Source of the DNA: a virus
Taxonomy: Duplodnaviria > Caudoviricetes
Virus record (IMG/VR): IMGVR_UViG_3300037760_000080
Coordinates: 1 to 48,780 of that record
DNA: 48,780 bases
Direction: 5' to 3' (one strand)
A model generated the notes under the pieces. That model saw only the letters and a program-made list of their open reading frames with translations. It was not told the origin of the DNA and ran no database searches. Numbering within the stretch: the stretch's first letter is position 1; the number at the start of each line of letters is the position of its first letter. Below are positions 6,578 to 38,012 of the stretch, one piece after another. Both the position numbers and the translations under genes were made by a program.

Positions 6578-6817
6578 ATGAAGGTCGTGTATGCAACGAC
6601 AACTGCGCCTGTGCAGCTGCCGTCGGGGATCAGTGGGGTCATCCAGAAGGGGTCGCACTGGCCTGCTGATGATCCGGTGGTCCGTGCCCATCCGGAGTAT
6701 TTCTCCGACGATGCCCGCTTCGGGTTGAACTACTCCGAGGAGCCCGAAGGCTACGACGCCCCGGTGGAGACCGCCACCGCCGCGCCGGGTGAGAAGCGTC
6801 AGGCCCGCCGTGGCTGA
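6578..6817 (+). CDS. small head-associated hypothetical protein
   Basis: RBS AGGAAG; 'DDPVVRAHPEYF' and 'VETATAAPGEKR' motifs typical of small post-capsid actinophage genes. Confidence 0.7.
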   Translation: MKVVYATTTAPVQLPSGISGVIQKGSHWPADDPVVRAHPEYFSDDARFGLNYSEEPEGYDAPVETATAAPGEKRQARRG

Positions 6818-8255
6818 GCCCACCACGACGACGCTGGACGCGTTGGAGACAGGTGACCCTGCGCAGGCGGTCACCGTCGCGTACGTGCATCAGAACGAGG
6901 TCACCTACTCTTGGCACCACTCGATGATCGAGATGGTCGGCTGGGATCTGACCAACCACGGCCGCATCATGGCCGGCGGCTACATCGCCATGCGGTGCGG
7001 CTCCGACGGTCTGGTCGAGGCACGCAATCAGGCCGTCAAGCACTTTCTCAAGGACCGAACCGCGGAGTGGCTGTTCTGGATCGACACCGACATGGGATTC
7101 GAGCCGGACACCATCGACCGTCTGATCGAGGCCGCCGACCCGCAGGAGCGGCCCATGGTGGGCGGGCTGTGCTTCTCGCTGCGGGAAACCGAGCCGGATG
7201 CGGCCGGCGGGTGGCGCACCGCCCCGACCCCGACCATCTTCGACTGGGCGAAGGTCGACGATCAGATGGGGTTCGCAGTCCGCTGGGACTACCCGGCGGA
7301 CACGTTGACTCAGTGCGCCGGCACCGGCTCGGCCTGCCTGCTGATCCACCGGTCGGTGTTCGAGGCAGTTGAGCAGAAGTACGGGCCGATCTGGTATGAC
7401 CGCGTCCCGAACACGTCCACCGGGCAACTGATCTCGGAGGACCTGTCGTTCTGCCTGCGGGCGCAGGCGATGGGCATCCCACTGTTCGTCCACACCGGTG
7501 TCCGCACGACACACATGAAGCCGTTCTGGCTCGCCGAGGACGACTACCGGCGGCACCGGCTATTCGAGGTCCCGGCCGACGCGGTGACACCACCACCGGC
7601 CACAACTGAGACTGCGGTCATCGTCCCGGCCATGCGGTGGAAGAACGCGGAACGATTCATGAGATCGCTGCGGGCATCCACCGGGATCGCCCACGCGTAC
7701 GCGGTGGCGGCACCGGATGAGACCGACGCGATCGACGCCTGGCGGCAGGCCGGTGCCGAGGTACTGGTTGCTGACGCGCACACGTTCGCGGAGCGGATGA
7801 ACGCCGGCTACCGGATGACCAGCGAACCGTGGCTGTTCATCGTCGGCGACGATGTGCGGTTCCATTCCGGCTGGCTTGACCAGGCGCAGGCCCGGGCTGG
7901 GGACGAGTTCCATGTGATCGGCACCAATGATCTCGGCAATCCGCGAGTGATGGCCGGCGGACACGCCACGCATCTGCTGGTGCGTCGGTCGTACGTGGAT
8001 GAGCAGGGCGCCTCGTGGGACGGGCCGAAGGTGGTCTGTCACGAGGGCTACCGGCACTGGTTCGTCGACGACGAGATTGTCACAGCCGCGAAGCAGCGCG
8101 GCGTGTGGGCGATGGCGCTGGAGTCGGTGGTCGAGCACTTGCACCCGATGTTCGGCAAGGGCGAACCGGACGACATTTACAAGATCGGCGAGGGACACGC
8201 CACCCAAGACCGGGGGACCTTTGATCGGCGACTGCGAGAGAACTCCGATGCGTAG
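6810..8255 (+). CDS. two-domain GT-A (GT2-like) glycosyltransferase
   Basis: Domain 1: ARN, WLFWIDTDMGF, GSACLLIHR, SEDLSFC. Domain 2: VIVPA, FIVGDDVRF, HWFVDDE. Start GTG 6810 inferred (track gives 6789). Confidence 0.85.
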   Translation: MAEPTTTTLDALETGDPAQAVTVAYVHQNEVTYSWHHSMIEMVGWDLTNHGRIMAGGYIAMRCGSDGLVEARNQAVKHFLKDRTAEWLFWIDTDMGFEPDTIDRLIEAADPQERPMVGGLCFSLRETEPDAAGGWRTAPTPTIFDWAKVDDQMGFAVRWDYPADTLTQCAGTGSACLLIHRSVFEAVEQKYGPIWYDRVPNTSTGQLISEDLSFCLRAQAMGIPLFVHTGVRTTHMKPFWLAEDDYRRHRLFEVPADAVTPPPATTETAVIVPAMRWKNAERFMRSLRASTGIAHAYAVAAPDETDAIDAWRQAGAEVLVADAHTFAERMNAGYRMTSEPWLFIVGDDVRFHSGWLDQAQARAGDEFHVIGTNDLGNPRVMAGGHATHLLVRRSYVDEQGASWDGPKVVCHEGYRHWFVDDEIVTAAKQRGVWAMALESVVEHLHPMFGKGEPDDIYKIGEGHATQDRGTFDRRLRENSDA

Positions 8256-9426
8256 GGATTCTTGCGGCGGCTGCGGTGCGAGCGACCTGCAGCCGTTCCT
8301 CGACTTGGGTGACTCGCCGCTGGCCGACCGGTTCCCGGCGACCGTCGACGAGCCGGAGGACCGCTATCCGCTGCAATTGGCGGTGTGCACGTCCTGCTGG
8401 CTGGTCCAGTTGACCGAGGTCGTGCCGGATGGGCTGCTGTACGGCGAGGACTACGCGTTCTTCACCGGCTCGTCCCCGTCGGCAGTGGCGTACTTCGCCG
8501 ACTACGCCGCGCAGTTGAAGCAACAACTCGGCCTGGACGCCGGCAAGTTCCTGGTGGAGATCGCCTGCAACGACGGGACGATGCTCACCGAGCACGACTG
8601 CCGCACGCTCGGCGTCGAACCCGCTGACGGCCCGGCAGCAGTGGCGCGAGCCAAGGGTCTGGCCGTGATGCACGAGCCGTTTGGGCTGGAGACGGCCCGC
8701 CGGATCGTGACCGACTACGGTGGCGTGGACGTGGTCGTGGCCAACAACGTGACCGCGCACGTGTCGGATCTGCATGATTTCTTCGCTGGCATAGAGCACC
8801 TGCTCGCCGATGACGGCGTCGCCGTGATCGAGGTGCAGTACCTCGCGGACCTACTCACCGGCGGCCAGTTCGATCACGTCTACCACGAGCACCGCTACTA
8901 CTTCACCGCTGACTCGTTGGCGCGGGTAGCGGCACGACACGGACTCTTCGTCCGGTCGGTGACTCCGACTCCGGCGCAGGGCGGGTCGATCCGTGTGACG
9001 TTCGGCCGGGGCGAACCGATCAGTCTGTCCGAGCCGGTGTGGCTGCGGCAGCCGTCCACATTCCTGAGCCTGCAGGGCCGGGTCGAGCACATCCGTACCC
9101 GGCTGCTGGACCTGCTCGACGAGCAGATCGCCGCCGGCCGCAAGGTCGCCGGGTATGCGGCGTCGGCGAAGTCGGCGACCCTGCTGAACTTCTGCGGCAT
9201 CGGACCGGATCGGCTCGACCACATTGTCGACACCACGCCGCACAAGATCGGGCGCTACGCGCCGGGCTCGAAGATCCCCGTCTGCGGGCCTGGGGAGCGC
9301 CCTGAGCCTGACGTGTACCTGCTGCTGGCCTGGAACTACCTGCCGGGGGTTCTGCGCCGTGAGTCGGCGTACATGGCCGCCGGTGGCCGGTTCCTGGTGC
9401 CCCTGCCGATGCCGGTGCTGCTGTGA
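8248..9426 (+). CDS. NDP-sugar C-methyltransferase (TylC3/EryBIII-like)
   Basis: CGGCG...FLDLGDSPLADRF, LAVCTSCWLVQL (Zn domain), VEIACNDG (SAM), FDHVYHEH, GYAASAKSATLLN, LLLAWNY. Confidence 0.9.
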   Translation: MRRDSCGGCGASDLQPFLDLGDSPLADRFPATVDEPEDRYPLQLAVCTSCWLVQLTEVVPDGLLYGEDYAFFTGSSPSAVAYFADYAAQLKQQLGLDAGKFLVEIACNDGTMLTEHDCRTLGVEPADGPAAVARAKGLAVMHEPFGLETARRIVTDYGGVDVVVANNVTAHVSDLHDFFAGIEHLLADDGVAVIEVQYLADLLTGGQFDHVYHEHRYYFTADSLARVAARHGLFVRSVTPTPAQGGSIRVTFGRGEPISLSEPVWLRQPSTFLSLQGRVEHIRTRLLDLLDEQIAAGRKVAGYAASAKSATLLNFCGIGPDRLDHIVDTTPHKIGRYAPGSKIPVCGPGERPEPDVYLLLAWNYLPGVLRRESAYMAAGGRFLVPLPMPVLL

Positions 9427-10376
9427 GGGCGCTCATTACCGGTATCACCGGGCAAGCCGGCTCGTACTTAACTGAGCAGCTCGCCGCCGAGGGCCACCAG
9501 GTGTTCGGGCTGCTGCACGGGCAGCGCAACCCGAAGCGGGCGTGGATCGAGACGCTGGTGCCCGAGATCATCCTGATCGAGGGCGACCTGCTGGACCAGT
9601 CGTCGCTGCAACGCGCTCTCGTCACCGCGGAACCAGATGTGGTGTTCAATCTGGGCGCGTTGACCTACGTGGGTATGTCGTGGCAGCAGCCCACATTGAT
9701 GACCGAGGTGACCGGGCTGGGTTGTTTGCGAATGCTCGAAGCGATCCGCGCAGTCAACCCCGACACCCGGTTCGTGCAGGCGTCCACGTCGGAGATGTTC
9801 GGCAGCTCCCCAGCGCCACAGTCGGAGTCAACACCGTTCCATCCGCGCAGCCCGTACGGGGTGGCGAAGCTGTTCGCCCACCACACGACGGTGAACTATC
9901 GCGATTCGTACGGCATGCACGCCTCGACAGCGGTCATGTTCAACGCTGAATCGCCGCGCCGCGGTGAGGAGTTCGTGACCCGCAAGGTGACCGCCGCCGT
10001 TGCGCGCATCGCCCGCGGCGAACAAGCCAACCTGCGGCTGGGGAACCTGGCTGCGCGCCGCGACTGGGGCTGGATACCGGACTTTATGCGGGCCTGGGCA
10101 CTGATCGCCGAGCAAGAACGACCCGACGACTACGTGCTTGCTACTGGCGAATCCCACTCGGTGGCCGAGTTGTGCGAGGCGGCGTTCGCCGAGGCCGGGT
10201 TGGATTGGCGGGACCACGTGCAGGTCGATCCCGGCTTGTTCCGCCCGGCCGATGTGGAGCATTTGTGTGGCGACCCGGCCAAGGCTGGACGATTGCTCGG
10301 ATGGGAACCGTCGGTGTTCTTCACCGAGATCGTCAAGCGGATGGTGGCCGCTGAGACGCTGGAGGTCGCAGCGTGA
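9423..10376 (+). CDS. gmd: GDP-mannose 4,6-dehydratase
   Basis: ALITGITGQAGSYL, QASTSEMFG, PFHPRSPYGVAK, ESPRRGEEFVTRKV, RDWG, DDYVLATGE. Confidence 0.95.
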   Translation: MRALITGITGQAGSYLTEQLAAEGHQVFGLLHGQRNPKRAWIETLVPEIILIEGDLLDQSSLQRALVTAEPDVVFNLGALTYVGMSWQQPTLMTEVTGLGCLRMLEAIRAVNPDTRFVQASTSEMFGSSPAPQSESTPFHPRSPYGVAKLFAHHTTVNYRDSYGMHASTAVMFNAESPRRGEEFVTRKVTAAVARIARGEQANLRLGNLAARRDWGWIPDFMRAWALIAEQERPDDYVLATGESHSVAELCEAAFAEAGLDWRDHVQVDPGLFRPADVEHLCGDPAKAGRLLGWEPSVFFTEIVKRMVAAETLEVAA

Positions 10377-10987
10377 CGCTCGCGTCGATCGTCACCCCCA
10401 CCATCCCGGGCCGCGAACACCTGCTGCTCGACCGGTGTGTTTCGTCGGTGCGGGCGCAGACGTGGCCCGAAGTCGAACACGTCATCGTGTCCGACCGCAA
10501 CCCCGGATTGGCCGAAAAGATGGCCGGTTTGCCAGGCGTCCGGTTTGCTGAGATCAACGAGACGTGGCGGGATGGCCGCGAGCACAGCACTGGCGCCTAT
10601 CCGTGGCAGTTCGGGTCGGTGTTGGCGCTCGGCGAGTTCGTCGGGTTCCTCGGCGACGACGACGAGCTGCTGCCGGATCACGTGGAGCGTCATGTAGCCG
10701 CGATGGTCGAGACAGGTGCCGATTTCACGATCTCCCCGGTGCAATTCCGAGTAGGCGGCGAAGGCCGGTTCATCATCGGCGATGCCACATTTGCACATGG
10801 TCACCTCGACTCGGACGGGATCATGTGCCGGGTGGCGACGCTACGGACGGCCACGTGGAGGCCGGATCACATAAAGAACGCCGCCGATGCCCAACTGGTC
10901 CAGGACTGGCTGGTCGCCGGGCTGCGAGGGCATTTCATCGGCGGCGAACCGACCGCTATCCACCACGACGGCTGGGCAGCCAGGTAA
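10373..10987 (+). CDS. glycosyltransferase family 2
   Basis: SIVTPT, SVRAQTW, EHVIVSD, GEFVGFLGDDD. Confidence 0.85.
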   Translation: MTLASIVTPTIPGREHLLLDRCVSSVRAQTWPEVEHVIVSDRNPGLAEKMAGLPGVRFAEINETWRDGREHSTGAYPWQFGSVLALGEFVGFLGDDDELLPDHVERHVAAMVETGADFTISPVQFRVGGEGRFIIGDATFAHGHLDSDGIMCRVATLRTATWRPDHIKNAADAQLVQDWLVAGLRGHFIGGEPTAIHHDGWAAR

Positions 10988-10998
10988 GGGGAACGACC

Positions 10999-11631
10999 AT
11001 GCCGAACCTGTACGCCACCGCCGATGAACTCAAGGCCCGATTCGGCATCCCCGACAGTCTTGAGGACACCCTGGTCGACTCGGCGCTGGACTCGGCGTCC
11101 CGGGCCATCGACCAACACTGCCAGCGCATCTTCTACATCACCGGCTCCACCACGGCCACCTTCGTGGCCAAAGACCGATACTGCCTGCGCCCGGCCGACA
11201 CCGACGTGTGGGTCGGCGACATCGTCACGGTCACCAGCCTGAAAACCGACGTCTCCGGCGATGGGACCTTCGAAACGACCTGGGCGGCGACGGACTACCA
11301 GCTGTGGCCGGTGAACGCGGCCACCGGTCCGGAGTCGCGGCCCTACACCGAGGTCCGCGCCGTCGGTACTCAAACGTTCCCCGTGCCGTACGCCTACTCG
11401 CAGCAGCGGATGAACCGGGTGCAGATCGTCGGCACGTTCGGCTGGCCCACCGCCGCCCCGTCGGCGGTTAAGGAAGCCTGCCTGATGCTGTCTGCCGAGT
11501 TGTTCAAACTCAAGGACGCCCCGTTCGGGATCGCCGGGTGGAGCGAGTTCGGTGCTGTGCGGATTCGCGAGAACCCGAAGGTCGCCAGGATGCTGATGCC
11601 GTATCAGCGCTATCCAGTGTTGGTGGCGTAG
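10999..11631 (+). CDS. head-to-tail adaptor
   Basis: YATADELKARFG, ASRAIDQHC, FGWPTAAPSAVKEACL. Confidence 0.85.
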   Translation: MPNLYATADELKARFGIPDSLEDTLVDSALDSASRAIDQHCQRIFYITGSTTATFVAKDRYCLRPADTDVWVGDIVTVTSLKTDVSGDGTFETTWAATDYQLWPVNAATGPESRPYTEVRAVGTQTFPVPYAYSQQRMNRVQIVGTFGWPTAAPSAVKEACLMLSAELFKLKDAPFGIAGWSEFGAVRIRENPKVARMLMPYQRYPVLVA

Positions 11632-12042
11632 ATGGCCACCATGCAGGAGATCCGCGAGGGCATCGACGACCGCCTCGCCACCATCGCCGGCCTACGGCAT
11701 TCAGCGAATGTTCCGAAGAGTCCTAATCCCGCTCCCGAGGGCGGACATGCGTACGTCAAGCGCCGTACAACGACGTTCGGTGTATCCATGGATGGCGAGG
11801 ACGATGTGACGTTCGCTGTCACAGTAGTGGTGTCCTGGGCCGAACAAGAAAAAGCTCAGGTAGCTCTCGATCAATATCTGGCGTCCACCGGTGCGAAGTC
11901 CATCAAGGCCGCCATCGACGCCGACCCGACGCTCGGCGGGATTGTCGACTACGCGCACGCCACCCAAGTTGAGGATGAGCGGATCACCGTGTTCGGCGGT
12001 GTCGAATACCTAGCCACCGACATCGTGGTCGAGGTGGGCTGA
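11632..12042 (+). CDS. tail terminator / head-tail connector
   Basis: Position; IREGIDDRLATIAGL and SIKAAIDADPTLGG motifs. Confidence 0.7.
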   Translation: MATMQEIREGIDDRLATIAGLRHSANVPKSPNPAPEGGHAYVKRRTTTFGVSMDGEDDVTFAVTVVVSWAEQEKAQVALDQYLASTGAKSIKAAIDADPTLGGIVDYAHATQVEDERITVFGGVEYLATDIVVEVG

Positions 12043-13067
12043 TGCGCTGGGTGGTGTGCCATCCCGGCCCCGCGTTCAGCGTTCACGATGTCTACGCCGG
12101 CTGGGTTGAAGCTCTCACCGAGTTCGGCCAGCAAGTGCAGATATTCAACCTGGAGGACCGGCTCACCTTCTACGACTCGGCCTACCTCAACGTCGCCGAG
12201 GGCCAGTTCCGCAAGGCGGTACCCTCAGACAAGGCCATCGAGATGGCCGTGTACGGACTGTACGCCCCGCTGTACCGGTTCCGGCCACACGTGCTGCTCA
12301 TCGTCTCGGCGTTCCTTATCCCGACCGAACTGATGGACATCGCCCGCAGCTACGGCACCAAGGTCGTCGTCCTGCACACCGAAGCCCCGTACGAGGACAC
12401 CCGCCAACTCGAGGTGGCCGCACACGCCGACCTGAACCTGCTCAACGACCCGGTCAACATCGACCGGTACCGCGAGCTCGCCCCGACTGAGTACGTGCCC
12501 CACGCCTACCGTCCGAAGCTGCATCGTCCCGGCGCTGTGGACAAGGACCTGGCTGCGGACCTGGCATTCGTCGGCACCGGATTCGAGTCGCGGATCAAGT
12601 TCTTCGAGACCATGGACCTGGACGGGCTGGATGTGCTGCTGGCCGGCAACTGGCAACGGCTCACCGAGGACTCGCCGCTGCGTAAGTACGTGGCCCATGA
12701 CATCAAGGAATGCCTCGACAATACCGAGGGCGTACGGATCTATCGGTCGGCCAAGCTCGGGCTGAACCTGTACCGCCGCGAGGCTGAGGACGGCGACTCG
12801 CACGCCGGCTGGGCGATGGGGCCGCGTGAAGTCGAGATGGCCGCGATTGGATTGCCGTTCCTGCGTGACCCGCGCGGCGAGGGCGACGAGGTGCTGCCGA
12901 TGCTGCCCCGGTTCGACTCGCCGGCCGAGGCATCCGAGCTCGCCCGCTGGTGGGGTAAACACGATGGACTTCGGGCCGAGGCCGCACGGCAGGCCCGGGA
13001 AGCGGTCGCAGACCGCACGTTCGCAACGAATGCAGCACGTCTGCTGCGACTGCTAGAGAAGGAGTGA
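12042..13067 (+). CDS. GT-B glycosyltransferase (CgeB/Glyco_trans_1_2-like)
   Basis: HTEAPYED, DLAFVGT...SRIKFF, IYRSAKLGLNL, PREVEMAAIG. Confidence 0.8.
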   Translation: MRWVVCHPGPAFSVHDVYAGWVEALTEFGQQVQIFNLEDRLTFYDSAYLNVAEGQFRKAVPSDKAIEMAVYGLYAPLYRFRPHVLLIVSAFLIPTELMDIARSYGTKVVVLHTEAPYEDTRQLEVAAHADLNLLNDPVNIDRYRELAPTEYVPHAYRPKLHRPGAVDKDLAADLAFVGTGFESRIKFFETMDLDGLDVLLAGNWQRLTEDSPLRKYVAHDIKECLDNTEGVRIYRSAKLGLNLYRREAEDGDSHAGWAMGPREVEMAAIGLPFLRDPRGEGDEVLPMLPRFDSPAEASELARWWGKHDGLRAEAARQAREAVADRTFATNAARLLRLLEKE

Positions 13068-34466: not shown

Positions 34467-35399
34467 TCAGTCGGCTCGCGCCGGGGTGTCCTTCCAGATG
34501 TTCGCTACGATGTCGTGCAGTGCCTTGTCCGCCACCTGCGAGTAGCGGGCCGACGTCTCAGGGCGCGAATGCCCCAGCAGCCGGGAGACCCGCAGCACGT
34601 CGCCGGACTCGGCGTACACCTCGGTGGCGAACGCGTGCCGCAGCGTGTGCCCGGTCCAGCCCTTGCGGTCGATAGCCTTCGCGGCGGCCTTGCCGATCGC
34701 GTTCGGTGTCATGTGACCGCCGTTGCGACCCGGGAACAGCCAGCCGTCCTCCGCGCCGCTGGCGTACCGGTAGCCGCTGCCCCGCTCGCCCCGCTCGCGG
34801 CGGGCGATCTCACGAGCCAACTCGGCGGCCAGCACCGGGTGCAGCGGGATGGTGCGGGCCTTGCCGCCCTTGCCGATGACCCGCAGCACGGCCGGGTCGG
34901 CCTGGTCAAGCCGGAACCCGGCGACCTCGGCGCGGCGCAGCCCGGCGAACGCCATCAGCATCAGGATCATGCGCTGGCAGTCGTTGGCCCGCTGCACCGC
35001 CGCGTCCAGAATGTGGCCGGGTACCGGCCGCGGCTCCGGCGTGAGCACTCGCGGCGCTTTGATCTCGGCGGCCGGGTTGCGCCTGGTGTGCCCGGCGCGG
35101 ATGCCCCAGGTATAGAACGAATTCAGCGCTGACCGGTACGACTTGCGCGTCTCCGGTGCCCAGGCCTGACGCGCCATCCACTGGACCAACTCGTCCGGTT
35201 TGACCCGGAACGGGTTGCGCCGAAGTATCTCGTTACCCAGGTGGGCGATCTGGCAGCGGCGCAGTTCGATGGTGCGCTCGCGTATCCCCTCGGTTCTCAT
35301 CCAGTCGGCCCATAGGTCAACAGCCCGGTCCCAACGCATCCCCGTACCCCCGAGATCCCCCTGATCTGGGGTGTCTACTCGGGTCGGCGCGGCGGTCAT
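34467..35399 (-). CDS. int: tyrosine integrase lacking an arm-binding domain
   Basis: GLRRAE, GKGGK, HTLRH, LLGH, TSARY catalytic residues; start at 35399 or 35339. Confidence 0.93.
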   Translation of the reverse strand: MTAAPTRVDTPDQGDLGGTGMRWDRAVDLWADWMRTEGIRERTIELRRCQIAHLGNEILRRNPFRVKPDELVQWMARQAWAPETRKSYRSALNSFYTWGIRAGHTRRNPAAEIKAPRVLTPEPRPVPGHILDAAVQRANDCQRMILMLMAFAGLRRAEVAGFRLDQADPAVLRVIGKGGKARTIPLHPVLAAELAREIARRERGERGSGYRYASGAEDGWLFPGRNGGHMTPNAIGKAAAKAIDRKGWTGHTLRHAFATEVYAESGDVLRVSRLLGHSRPETSARYSQVADKALHDIVANIWKDTPARAD

Positions 35400-36125: not shown

Positions 36126-36295
36126 GGCAGGCGCGGCCAGGCCCGGCTAGTCAAGGCGAGCCCGGGCGCGGCGCGGCAGTCAGGGCTGGGCAAGTCACGT
36201 CGGCGTCAGGCCGGGCGTGGTCCGGCAGGCGCGGCATCGCATGGAGGTCCTGGCATGTCGCTGCGAGGCACGTCGGGGTATGGCCGGGCTGGCTT
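36126..36295 (+). ncRNA. pentamer array 1 (putative guide RNAs, 3 units)
   Basis: GGCAG(G/T)C delimiters at 36126, 36175, 36224 (49, 49, ~63 nt units) separating G(G/T)(C/T)NN pentamers. Confidence 0.75.
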
Positions 36296-36306
36296 GAAGT
36301 AATAGC

Positions 36307-36331
36307 GGCCCCGCTCACACGGAGCGGGGCC
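36307..36331 (+). other. 10-bp hairpin closing array 1
   Basis: GGCCCCGCTC-ACACG-GAGCGGGGCC. Confidence 0.65.
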
Positions 36332-36357: not shown

Positions 36358-36987
36358 ATGGCACCGAAGAAGCAGCAGGACGAAGGCCAGATCGAGATCT
36401 CGCGGATTCCCGCCGAGAGCCTTCGCATCCCCATCGTGGGGACGACGCCGCTGATCGTTCACCGGTTCAGCGAGAAGGCCAAGCGGATCATGCTCGACAA
36501 CATGCAGGGCCGCAAATCCCCGAAGGAGGCGAAAGACCCGCAGGCCGAGTACGAGGCCGCGTTCTACCGGCTCAAGGACGGCACGCCGGGTTTCCCGGTC
36601 ATCGCATTCAAGGCCGCCACGGTCGGAGCTGCCCGGTTCTACGGCAACTTGACCATGACTTCGCTCAAGCAGTCGATCTTCTTCGCCGGCGAGGTCGGCG
36701 GGGATGGGCGGATGTTGACCGCGATCCACGGCGAACCCCACATGCGGGAGGACGTCGTCACGGTCAACCGAGGCGGTTCGGACCTGCGTTACCGGCCCGA
36801 GTTCCCCGAGTGGTCGGCGACGTTGGAGGTCACGTTCGTCAAGTCGCTGCTGACCCGCAACTCGGTGCTCAGCTTGCTGGACGCGGGCGGCATGGGTGTC
36901 GGGGTCGGCGAGTGGCGTCCCGAGCGTGACGGCGACTTCGGCCAGTTCAAGATCGACGAGACCAAGGATATCGAGGTCCTCCCGTGA
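36358..36987 (+). CDS. stand-alone Cas7/RAMP-like RNA-binding protein (Vipr-like effector)
   Basis: RAMP hallmarks: IVGTTPLIV, PGFPVIAFKAA, thumb-like MREDVVTVNRGGSDLRYRPEF, G-rich loop GGMGVGVGEWRPERDGDFGQF. Confidence 0.8.
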   Translation: MAPKKQQDEGQIEISRIPAESLRIPIVGTTPLIVHRFSEKAKRIMLDNMQGRKSPKEAKDPQAEYEAAFYRLKDGTPGFPVIAFKAATVGAARFYGNLTMTSLKQSIFFAGEVGGDGRMLTAIHGEPHMREDVVTVNRGGSDLRYRPEFPEWSATLEVTFVKSLLTRNSVLSLLDAGGMGVGVGEWRPERDGDFGQFKIDETKDIEVLP

Positions 36988-36991
36988 GCAA

Positions 36992-37408
36992 GGCAGTCAT
37001 GGTCCGGCCCGGCGCGTCTCGGAAGCGCAGGGTGAGTCAGGGTTCGGCAGGCGGGGCCAGTCTCGGCGCGACACGTCAGGTCTCGTCTCGGCTAGGTTCG
37101 GCACGGCAGTCAGGGCTAGGCCGAGTTCGTCAGGTTGCGGCGTTGCATGGCACGGCAGGTCGCGGCAGGCATGGCCAGGCTCGTCGTGTTGCGGCATCGC
37201 AAGGCCAGGCAGGCTGGGCAGGGCCAGGTATGTCGTGGTGTGACCCGTTGGGGCATGTCTCGTTCAGGCTAGGCACGGCATGGCAGGCGAGGTCAGTCTC
37301 GGCATGTCTAGGCGCGTTAGTGCGCGTCCAGGCCCGGCTGGGTTCGGCAGGCGGGGTGCGTCAAGGCGCGTTTAGTTACGGCTTGGCCCGCCGCGTCGTG
37401 GCAGGTGT
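36992..37408 (+). ncRNA. pentamer array 2 (putative guide RNAs, 7 units)
   Basis: Delimiters at 36992, 37046, 37105, 37164, 37208, 37282, 37346, 37400; unit lengths 54, 59, 59, 44, 74, 64, 54 (all 9+5n); 60 of 69 pentamers begin G(G/T)(C/T). Confidence 0.85.
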
Positions 37409-37411
37409 GTC

Positions 37412-37825
37412 ATGAGCCTGCGCGATCAACTGCAGAAGGTCTACGACGAGCACGGCATGTTGACGCCCAAGCTCGTCGTAGACCTCGCCCGCGACCCAGA
37501 CCACGAGCTGCACTCCCGCTTCGAGTGGGACGACTCCGTCGCCGCCGAGAAGTACCGGCAGGAACAAGCCCGCGACCTGATCCGCAAAGTCCGCGTGGTC
37601 TACCGCGAAGGCGACGAGAAGAACCCGCCGCAAACCATCCGCGCCTACCACTCCGTGCCGGACGGCGACGGCTACGCCTACCGCTCCACGGACGAGGTCG
37701 TCCACGACCCGCTCCTGACCAAGATGCTGCTCGCCCAAATGGAGCGCGACTGGAAAGACCTGCACCGCCGCTGGGCACACATGGGCGAGTTCATCGAGAT
37801 GGTGCGGAAGGACGTGGCGGCATGA
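37412..37825 (+). CDS. conserved phage protein, putative accessory subunit of the RAMP/array system
   Basis: GMLTPKLVVDLARDPDHELHSRFEWDDSVAAEKYRQEQARDLIR; flanked by arrays on both sides. Confidence 0.75.
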   Translation: MSLRDQLQKVYDEHGMLTPKLVVDLARDPDHELHSRFEWDDSVAAEKYRQEQARDLIRKVRVVYREGDEKNPPQTIRAYHSVPDGDGYAYRSTDEVVHDPLLTKMLLAQMERDWKDLHRRWAHMGEFIEMVRKDVAA

Positions 37826-37828
37826 CAT

Positions 37829-37904
37829 GGCAGTTGGGGCTTGGCGGGGCTGGTCGGGGTGTGACTCGGCTCGGCATGGCGGGGCTTGTCTCGGCGGACA
37901 AGCC
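37829..37904 (+). ncRNA. pentamer array 3 (1 unit plus hairpin)
   Basis: GGCAGTTGG followed by 11 in-phase pentamers; hairpin GGCTTGTC-TCGGCG-GACAAGCC at 37883-37904. Confidence 0.7.
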
Positions 37905-38012
37905 CAAGCCATCAAAGCCGATCAACGACGAGCCGGTGAAGAACCCACCCGTGCCGCTGCGGCCACTACCCCGGCCGCCGGCACCGCCGCAGAAACCAGG
38001 AGGCAAGCAGAT

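Follow-up and report, generated by a model that had tools for sequence, protein, structure and literature searches.

The locus and its guide arrays

The window—the whole 48,780-nucleotide stretch of phage DNA that was analysed—carries a compact locus that, on sequence grounds, is a VIPR system with staggered arrays, comprising a Vipr RAMP, GGY/NN guide arrays, and one accessory gene. The vipr gene (36358..36987, plus strand) would encode a 209-residue RAMP-fold effector, as indicated by a profile search and by structure comparison. A profile built from ten homologs (A2) matched SUSP1 Vipr (PDB 36pp, 36pp_D; E=1e-7), with an alignment that spans both the YRP.F strand and the G.G.WRP loop, and the top Foldseek matches of the predicted structure (pLDDT 77) are RAMP complexes of CRISPR Csm, Cmr, and type VII; profile and model together point to the RAMP fold with thumb and G-loop that characterizes Vipr. 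No Pfam family was found for Vipr or for the accessory protein, and an Atlas look-up matched only unnamed viral clusters. The accessory gene, a putative vap of 137 residues (37412..37825, plus strand), matches phrog_15946, a family with no assigned function, and its product is 90.5% identical to the counterpart in a sister phage. Both genes are placed between arrays, and the locus has the minimal make-up of a phage VIPR locus: vipr, one accessory gene, and no CRISPR array. The same phage encodes a terminase, a portal, a capsid, and an integrase—the last a tyrosine integrase (34467..35399, minus strand; PF00589, E=5e-20) that suggests the context of a temperate phage. Named homologs of Vipr occur in Thermoactinospora, Nonomuraea, and Streptomyces, so the host is probably an actinobacterium. 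Elsewhere in the window, glycosyltransferase-like genes (6789-8255 and 12042-13067, in the region 6789-13067) follow directly after the major head gene and are partly common to the sister phage.

The arrays hold 11 units of 8-14 pentamers, with scaffold triplets that are mostly GGC, GGT, or GTC and partly degenerate; the GGY/NN arrays of VIPR have about 9-16 pentamers per guide. Array 1 (36126..36291, plus strand) lies upstream of vipr, and no target was found for its guides. Between it and the vipr start is a perfect 10-bp hairpin (36307..36331, plus strand; z=-3.9), within a block that is identical in the sister phage; the hairpin may serve array 1 as a terminator or as a processing signal. 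Array 2 (36992..37413, plus strand) starts five bases past the vipr stop codon and sets seven staggered units between vipr and vap, with a one-base phase shift at each GGCA head. Its unit 1 (36992..37045, plus strand), a predicted vrRNA and putative anti-vipr guide, occupies the first slot behind that stop codon. The staggered architecture, in which neighbouring guides overlap by 1 nt, each beginning where the previous one ends, agrees with the legend of the published fig. S18, to which this comparison is confined. In contrast to the VIPR loci in the available text of Yoon et al. (10.64898/2026.04.26.720920), the units of array 2 abut at a GGCA head, and the invariant 3' pseudoknot tail of type II is absent between them. 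The locus resembles class 1 CRISPR-Cas, with its Cas7/Csm3 filaments, in a RAMP fold on a guide RNA; it differs in that one RAMP gene was found without a cas operon, no repeat-spacer array occurs among the repeat families listed for the window, and pairing would be gapped rather than contiguous.

Unit 7 of array 2 (37346..37399, plus strand) spells the motif GANAYTLPA, which occurs in tail-fibre-like proteins of other phages and is absent from the window. All four of its exact IMG/VR matches (L402-L405, at 1501-1526) fall on this one motif, wobble-aligned and on the template strand, which provides independent support for a one-base-skip code. Unit 3 had no exact IMG/VR match. The guides at 37046-37104 and 37282-37345 have recognizable homologs in the sister phage (G001 16171 and 16245) with many NN changes, and no targets were found for them. 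Array 3 is a single guide after vap (37829..37897, plus strand) that loosely spells a Pro-rich frame just 3' of it (37909-37947), at 17/26 to the own and 17/26 to the sister sequence, both as raw counts. The same loose relation between the post-vap guide and the downstream Pro-rich frame is found in all three sister phages (L002 5457; L039 1120); the guide of L039 matches its own copy at 20/28, the guide of L002 matches the L039 copy at seven consecutive units, and guide and target seem to co-vary.

Decoding of the first guide and its match in a sister phage

Unit 1 consists of a GGCA head and ten pentamers with the NN string AT CC CC GC TC AG AG GA AG TC, exactly as a preliminary description of this DNA had given it. 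Reverse-complemented with one base skipped, the string reads GAn CTn TCn CTn CTn GAn GCn GGn GGn ATn, or (D/E)LSLL(D/E)AGG(I/M). The phage's own vipr carries the corresponding site at V170-M179 (36865..36894, plus strand), GTG CTC AGC TTG CTG GAC GCG GGC GGC ATG or VLSLLDAGGM, in what is predicted to be the helix (residues 167-178) leading into the G-loop. The match of 7/10 dinucleotides reported earlier was recovered (16/20 bases), with the skipped base at codon position 3. On the nine-unit pattern the own copy scores 15/18, differing by Ser172 AGC (36871-36873, plus strand) and Leu173 TTG (36874-36876, plus strand) alone; six consecutive units are perfect at the 5' end, the Leu codon gives an rG:dT wobble, and the Ser codon gives G:G and A:A mismatches. 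This site is the best match of the guide anywhere in the window. Taken on its own the self-match is suggestive, because 40/400 order-shuffled guides reach 16/20 somewhere in the window, and it was rejected as stand-alone evidence on that count; 4/100 shuffled windows hold a site with at most three mismatches to the nine-unit pattern, and within the vipr gene itself 15/18 was reached by 1/1500 shuffles.

The preliminary description also held that the guide follows an NN-skip-NN code, pairs with the coding strand, and targets the RAMP gene of rival phages. The nine-unit pattern has one exact match in IMG/VR (a set that possibly lacks the records nearest the window), and that match lies in the vipr gene of the sister phage L002/G001, whose Vipr and terminase are each 94% identical to those of the window. 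The sister site agrees at 18/18 bases, and at 19/20 over ten units, the codons being CTG TCG CTG CTG in the sister and CTC AGC TTG CTG in the window. Skips of 0, 1, 2, and 3 bases give 14, 18, 13, and 13 of 18 in the sister genome, where 0/400 shuffles reach 19/20 or 18/18; the sister-phage match is beyond chance. A one-nucleotide skip on the wobble base, the published VIPR rule, is the only one to fit, and the alignment supports both pairing with the coding strand and a rival's RAMP gene as the probable target. Reciprocal targeting was not seen, as 0/13 sister-phage guides match the vipr gene of the window above background.

We consider it probable that the first guide, which spells the sister vipr exactly, represses that gene, and that the silent Ser/Leu differences in the phage's own copy weaken or block self-binding. 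This reading builds on what is established here: the guide decodes to vipr sequence, the sister phage offers a perfect target, the own copy differs silently, and such differences are enriched across other phages. By analogy with SUSP1, unit 1 would be made as RNA and coated by Vipr, one protomer per pentamer, and the guide would pair with the coding strand and block transcription of the rival's vipr-vap operon. The swap of the own Ser codon from TCN to AGC, with Leu TTG, is predicted to weaken or block self-binding while leaving the protein unchanged. Mismatches at units 7 and 8 of ten would be expected to stall the complex early, given that R-loops extend from the 3' end of the guide; target engagement that starts from this end is described in the structure paper, in the available text of which no mismatch-tolerance data were found (10.64898/2026.04.26.720927). 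Selection against self-silencing would then favour Ser/Leu/Arg class switches at constrained residues and amino-acid changes elsewhere.

At 80-83%, the own site reaches the 80% match that Yoon et al. take as their target cut-off, whereas their available text reports no self match of at least 80% in the clades that they checked (10.64898/2026.04.26.720920). Weak autoregulation was raised as an alternative in the preliminary description; in that case the guide would bind its own vipr imperfectly and damp the operon, with the sister's perfect match as the ancestral state. It would fit the 15/18 self-match with its six perfect 5' units and a probably tolerated G:T at unit 7, as well as the co-location of the slot with vipr and a somewhat raised number of self matches across loci (9 vs 0.4 by chance at a score of at least 20). 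We nevertheless regard it as improbable, given that first-slot guides vary freely in site and strand between phages, that some match self poorly (L391 at 11/20, vs 18/20 for its sister), and that no guide of the sister phage L002 matches vipr.

Codon-class switching in vipr genes across loci

The target site was compared across 106 Vipr homologs at ≥55% identity. The guide matches 18/18 in one of them, 17 in 45, 16 in 35, and ≤15 in 25; 81/106 match it better than the carrier's own copy does. Among the 103 homologs with Ser at position 172, the codon is TCN in 100 and AGY in 3, and Leu173 is TTR in 19/106. The guide reads Leu174, which is present in the window's clade, while most homologs have Ile. 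Leu TTG was rejected as a signal by itself; because it occurs at background frequency and leaves a G:T wobble pair, Ser AGC carries the escape case.

Codons 172-173 are TCG CTG in the sister phages L002 and L039. L031, which a FastTree phylogeny places as sister group to the window's clade, also has AGC TTG, and polarity is ambiguous from the protein tree alone since this sharing could reflect either two gains or one gain with one loss. Closer relatives decide the matter and indicate that AGC is the derived state: contigs of runs X1 (minor branch), X2, X3, and X4 read TTG TCN CTG at codons 171-173 in the difference tables, matching the guide at 17/18 owing to TTG at Leu171. The X2-X4 contigs stop short of the guide, and X3 and X4 continue into different arrays. 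In run X1, the window allele has a depth of 14 and the TCG allele 5.1; the two rejoin and are followed by the window array at 17.3 and another array at 5.0. These parallel, unphased depths suggest that AGC is linked with the guide in X1, a run that is possibly not independent of the window. For P0122-P0124, three Vipr proteins almost identical to that of the window, a search for the underlying DNA gave no match.

The wider survey drew on 396 of 398 loci with a Vipr match, which gave 278 distinct genes and, in 229 loci, 1512 guide units (1496 distinct); the scaffold model used to parse units was set from the window's arrays, and some distant units will be false. GTDB sampling yielded few loci (2/401 genomes in one sampling, 8 loci in another), and GenBank phages hold only homologs at <60% identity (34 records). 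A non-self vipr is matched at a score of at least 24 by 12/1496 guides, against 0.65 expected, with 9/12 wobble-aligned; at a score of at least 22 the count is 14, against 2.8 expected, with 10/14 wobble-aligned (3 sense, 7 antisense). The L314 match, at a score of 22, may be due to chance. For the codon test we used the ten wobble-aligned vipr-targeting guides, leaving out L323, L080, L384, and the second L152 unit (all at a score of at least 22), which are not wobble-aligned. These ten provide 24 switchable codons, defined as Ser, Leu, or Arg codons of the carrier's own gene at which guide and gene agree on the residue, and in 15/24 the own codon belongs to the class that the guide does not read, compared with 8.4-9.6 expected under four backgrounds (column, nearest-25, GC-matched, and own-gene; p 0.0007-0.005). 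Without the window the count is 13/20 (p 0.004-0.012); the window alone gives 2/4 (p 0.07-0.28), which is not significant.

The same tendency appears when carriers are set against their nearest sisters. In the eight carriers with a sister at ≥85% identity, silent class switches are found at 12/20 codons inside guide footprints and 51/296 outside, whereas wobble changes are not enriched inside (22/91, against 348/1526 outside). The footprint contrast retains p=0.02 after dropping the window, L391, and L075; two carrier pairs are close kin (92-93%). The claim of the preliminary description that the phage had recoded its own copy to avoid self-targeting is partly supported: the silent Ser/Leu differences are real and are enriched across independent loci, escape of the own site from binding and its recoding in response to this guide are putative, and the Leu codon adds little to the case for the reasons given above. 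These results also bear on whether the guide is a relic that once matched a vipr gene, with the differences in the own copy as neutral codon noise. Codon usage in the window (AGY at 26% of Ser codons, TTR at 17% of Leu codons) and the window-only codon test are in keeping with such drift; the cross-locus enrichment under all four backgrounds, the contrast between footprints and the rest of the gene with no excess of wobble changes, and the rarity of AGY in the Ser172 column make it very improbable.

Silent switching is one route and not the rule, as 30/45 self-mismatched units across the ten guides change the amino acid; several of the 45 also mismatch the best rival. None of L379, L119, and L075 has switched silently away from its guide. 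Self-match is lower than the match to the nearest homolog in 6/10 guides, equal in 3/10, and higher in 1/10, and it falls below the median of the 20 nearest homologs in seven guides and equals that median in three. Among individual carriers, L073 differs from its own guide by Leu and Ser switches only, and between L391 and its target L379, which is 93% identical, there are four Ser/Leu switches in a row (the two record ids share a dataset number), with the derived rare codons partly on the target side.

Kin silencing could also be the function without the carrier's own guide having caused the recoding, if the Ser/Leu difference is older (a product of drift, of recombination, or of evading a rival's guide) and the guide was kept on a site that already differed between alleles. 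Between the window and its sister, Ser class switches are raised over the whole of vipr (4/11, against 4/84 in 12 other genes hand-picked at ≥79% identity between the sister phages; p=0.006), three of them outside the guide footprint, and whole-gene Ser switching fits escape from other phages' guides too; Leu switching is at 4/14 in vipr and 26/169 in the other genes (p=0.18). The L379/L391 differences form a block over codons 146-164 in which the guide tracks the derived AGT/TTG codons of its target, AGC TTG is common to L031, and a phage-encoded exonuclease and ssDNA annealing protein could move short patches. An older origin of the difference is nonetheless unlikely in our judgement. Among the closest relatives (L002, L039, and the X1-X4 alleles) AGC is found in the guide carrier alone, the switches concentrate within the carrier's own footprints, and where the guide reads the commoner codon class the carrier has the rarer one in 11/18 cases, against 4.05 expected. 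As a separate observation, the class switches relative to L002 that lie outside the guide footprint are S15, R36, S38, S153, and L156 (36400-36402, 36463-36471, 36814-36825), and S153 and L156 fall where the guides of L065 and L075 aim.

Published VIPR work and the first slot behind vipr

Earlier publications already cover the VIPR system, its one-base-skip code and wobble alignment, and guides that target vipr. In their available text, Yoon et al. establish the skip rule, wobble alignment, and repression from either strand, describe some guides aimed at other VIPR systems, and present wobble skipping as overcoming synonymous escape (10.64898/2026.04.26.720920). Lopez et al. report VIPR-null phages with wobble-aligned guides against vipr, find that vrRNA-targeting guides score lower on self than on non-self, which they read as autoimmunity avoidance, and state that escape needs changes at amino-acid-determining positions (10.64898/2026.10.15.759431, available text); a fourth preprint adds array variants (10.64898/2026.10.21.760802, available text). 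Codon-class switching as a silent exception to wobble skipping, and an anti-vipr first slot, appear to be new features: in the available text of the VIPR preprints, no mention was found of Ser/Leu/Arg class switching as escape or of a fixed anti-vipr slot. For Ser, a class switch is a two-base change (PMC6872785, available text).

Like the solo vrRNAs in the available text of Lopez et al., the window has a wobble-aligned guide against a rival's vipr gene. Their carriers, however, are VIPR-null and have no vipr of their own to protect, whereas here a VIPR-positive phage would target vipr; likewise, the self-avoidance that they show is for vrRNA loci, and the window case concerns vipr itself. 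The Ser/Leu/Arg switches form an exception to their rule that escape requires changes at amino-acid-determining positions. As with class 1 CRISPR-Cas, which phages escape through target mutation, escape here would come from changes in the target; unlike in that system, self and non-self in the window would be told apart by the choice of codons rather than by a PAM or a repeat tag.

Silent codon swaps likely let a phage silence its kin while sparing itself, which points to a gap in a code described as proof against synonymous change. The natural alleles point to an exception to the claim, in the available text of the VIPR papers, that wobble skipping closes the synonymous route. They also provide ready-made test pairs with the same amino acids at the switched codons: the window and L002, L391 and L379, and L073 and L070/L174. 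Such pairs would gauge mismatch tolerance and a possible 3' seed, both of which bear on the use of VIPR as a tool, and would reveal how kin are distinguished from self in a system that has no PAM.

The position of the guide was noticed post hoc to recur. In loci at ≥55% identity, 7/23 units that start at the vipr stop match vipr, compared with 1/766 other units, and over all loci the counts are 7/52 and 2/1444 (also post hoc); 16/23 first-slot guides have no vipr match in this set. Between phages the first-slot sites, near residues 151, 160, 171, 190, and 197, and their strands differ, and this variability is more in keeping with guides being retuned against kin than with a conserved feedback loop. 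More tentatively, and with somewhat less confidence than even, we propose that VIPR-positive phages keep a dedicated first-slot anti-vipr guide, retune it against kin, and gain immunity to it by Ser/Leu/Arg class switching; six-codon amino acids would be the one silent escape from a wobble-skipping code, and a Red Queen cycle of codon-class switching would therefore be written into vipr. A fixed anti-vipr slot, if true, would also hint at the way in which phages acquire new guides.

Several matches lie beside this pattern. The L031 first-slot guide resembles the site read by that of the window (17/24) and was not counted, since 4/60 shuffles reach its score. Guides L356 3930, L190 3150, L074 2885, L249 1616, and L152 2558 match the flanks of rival VIPR loci at scores of 26-30, the last on repeat-like sequence. 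Self matches near VIPR loci, the excess noted above under autoregulation, include L208 3113, L069 1880, L378 3487, and L380 3375; this excess suggests more kin-directed guides whose true targets escaped sampling.
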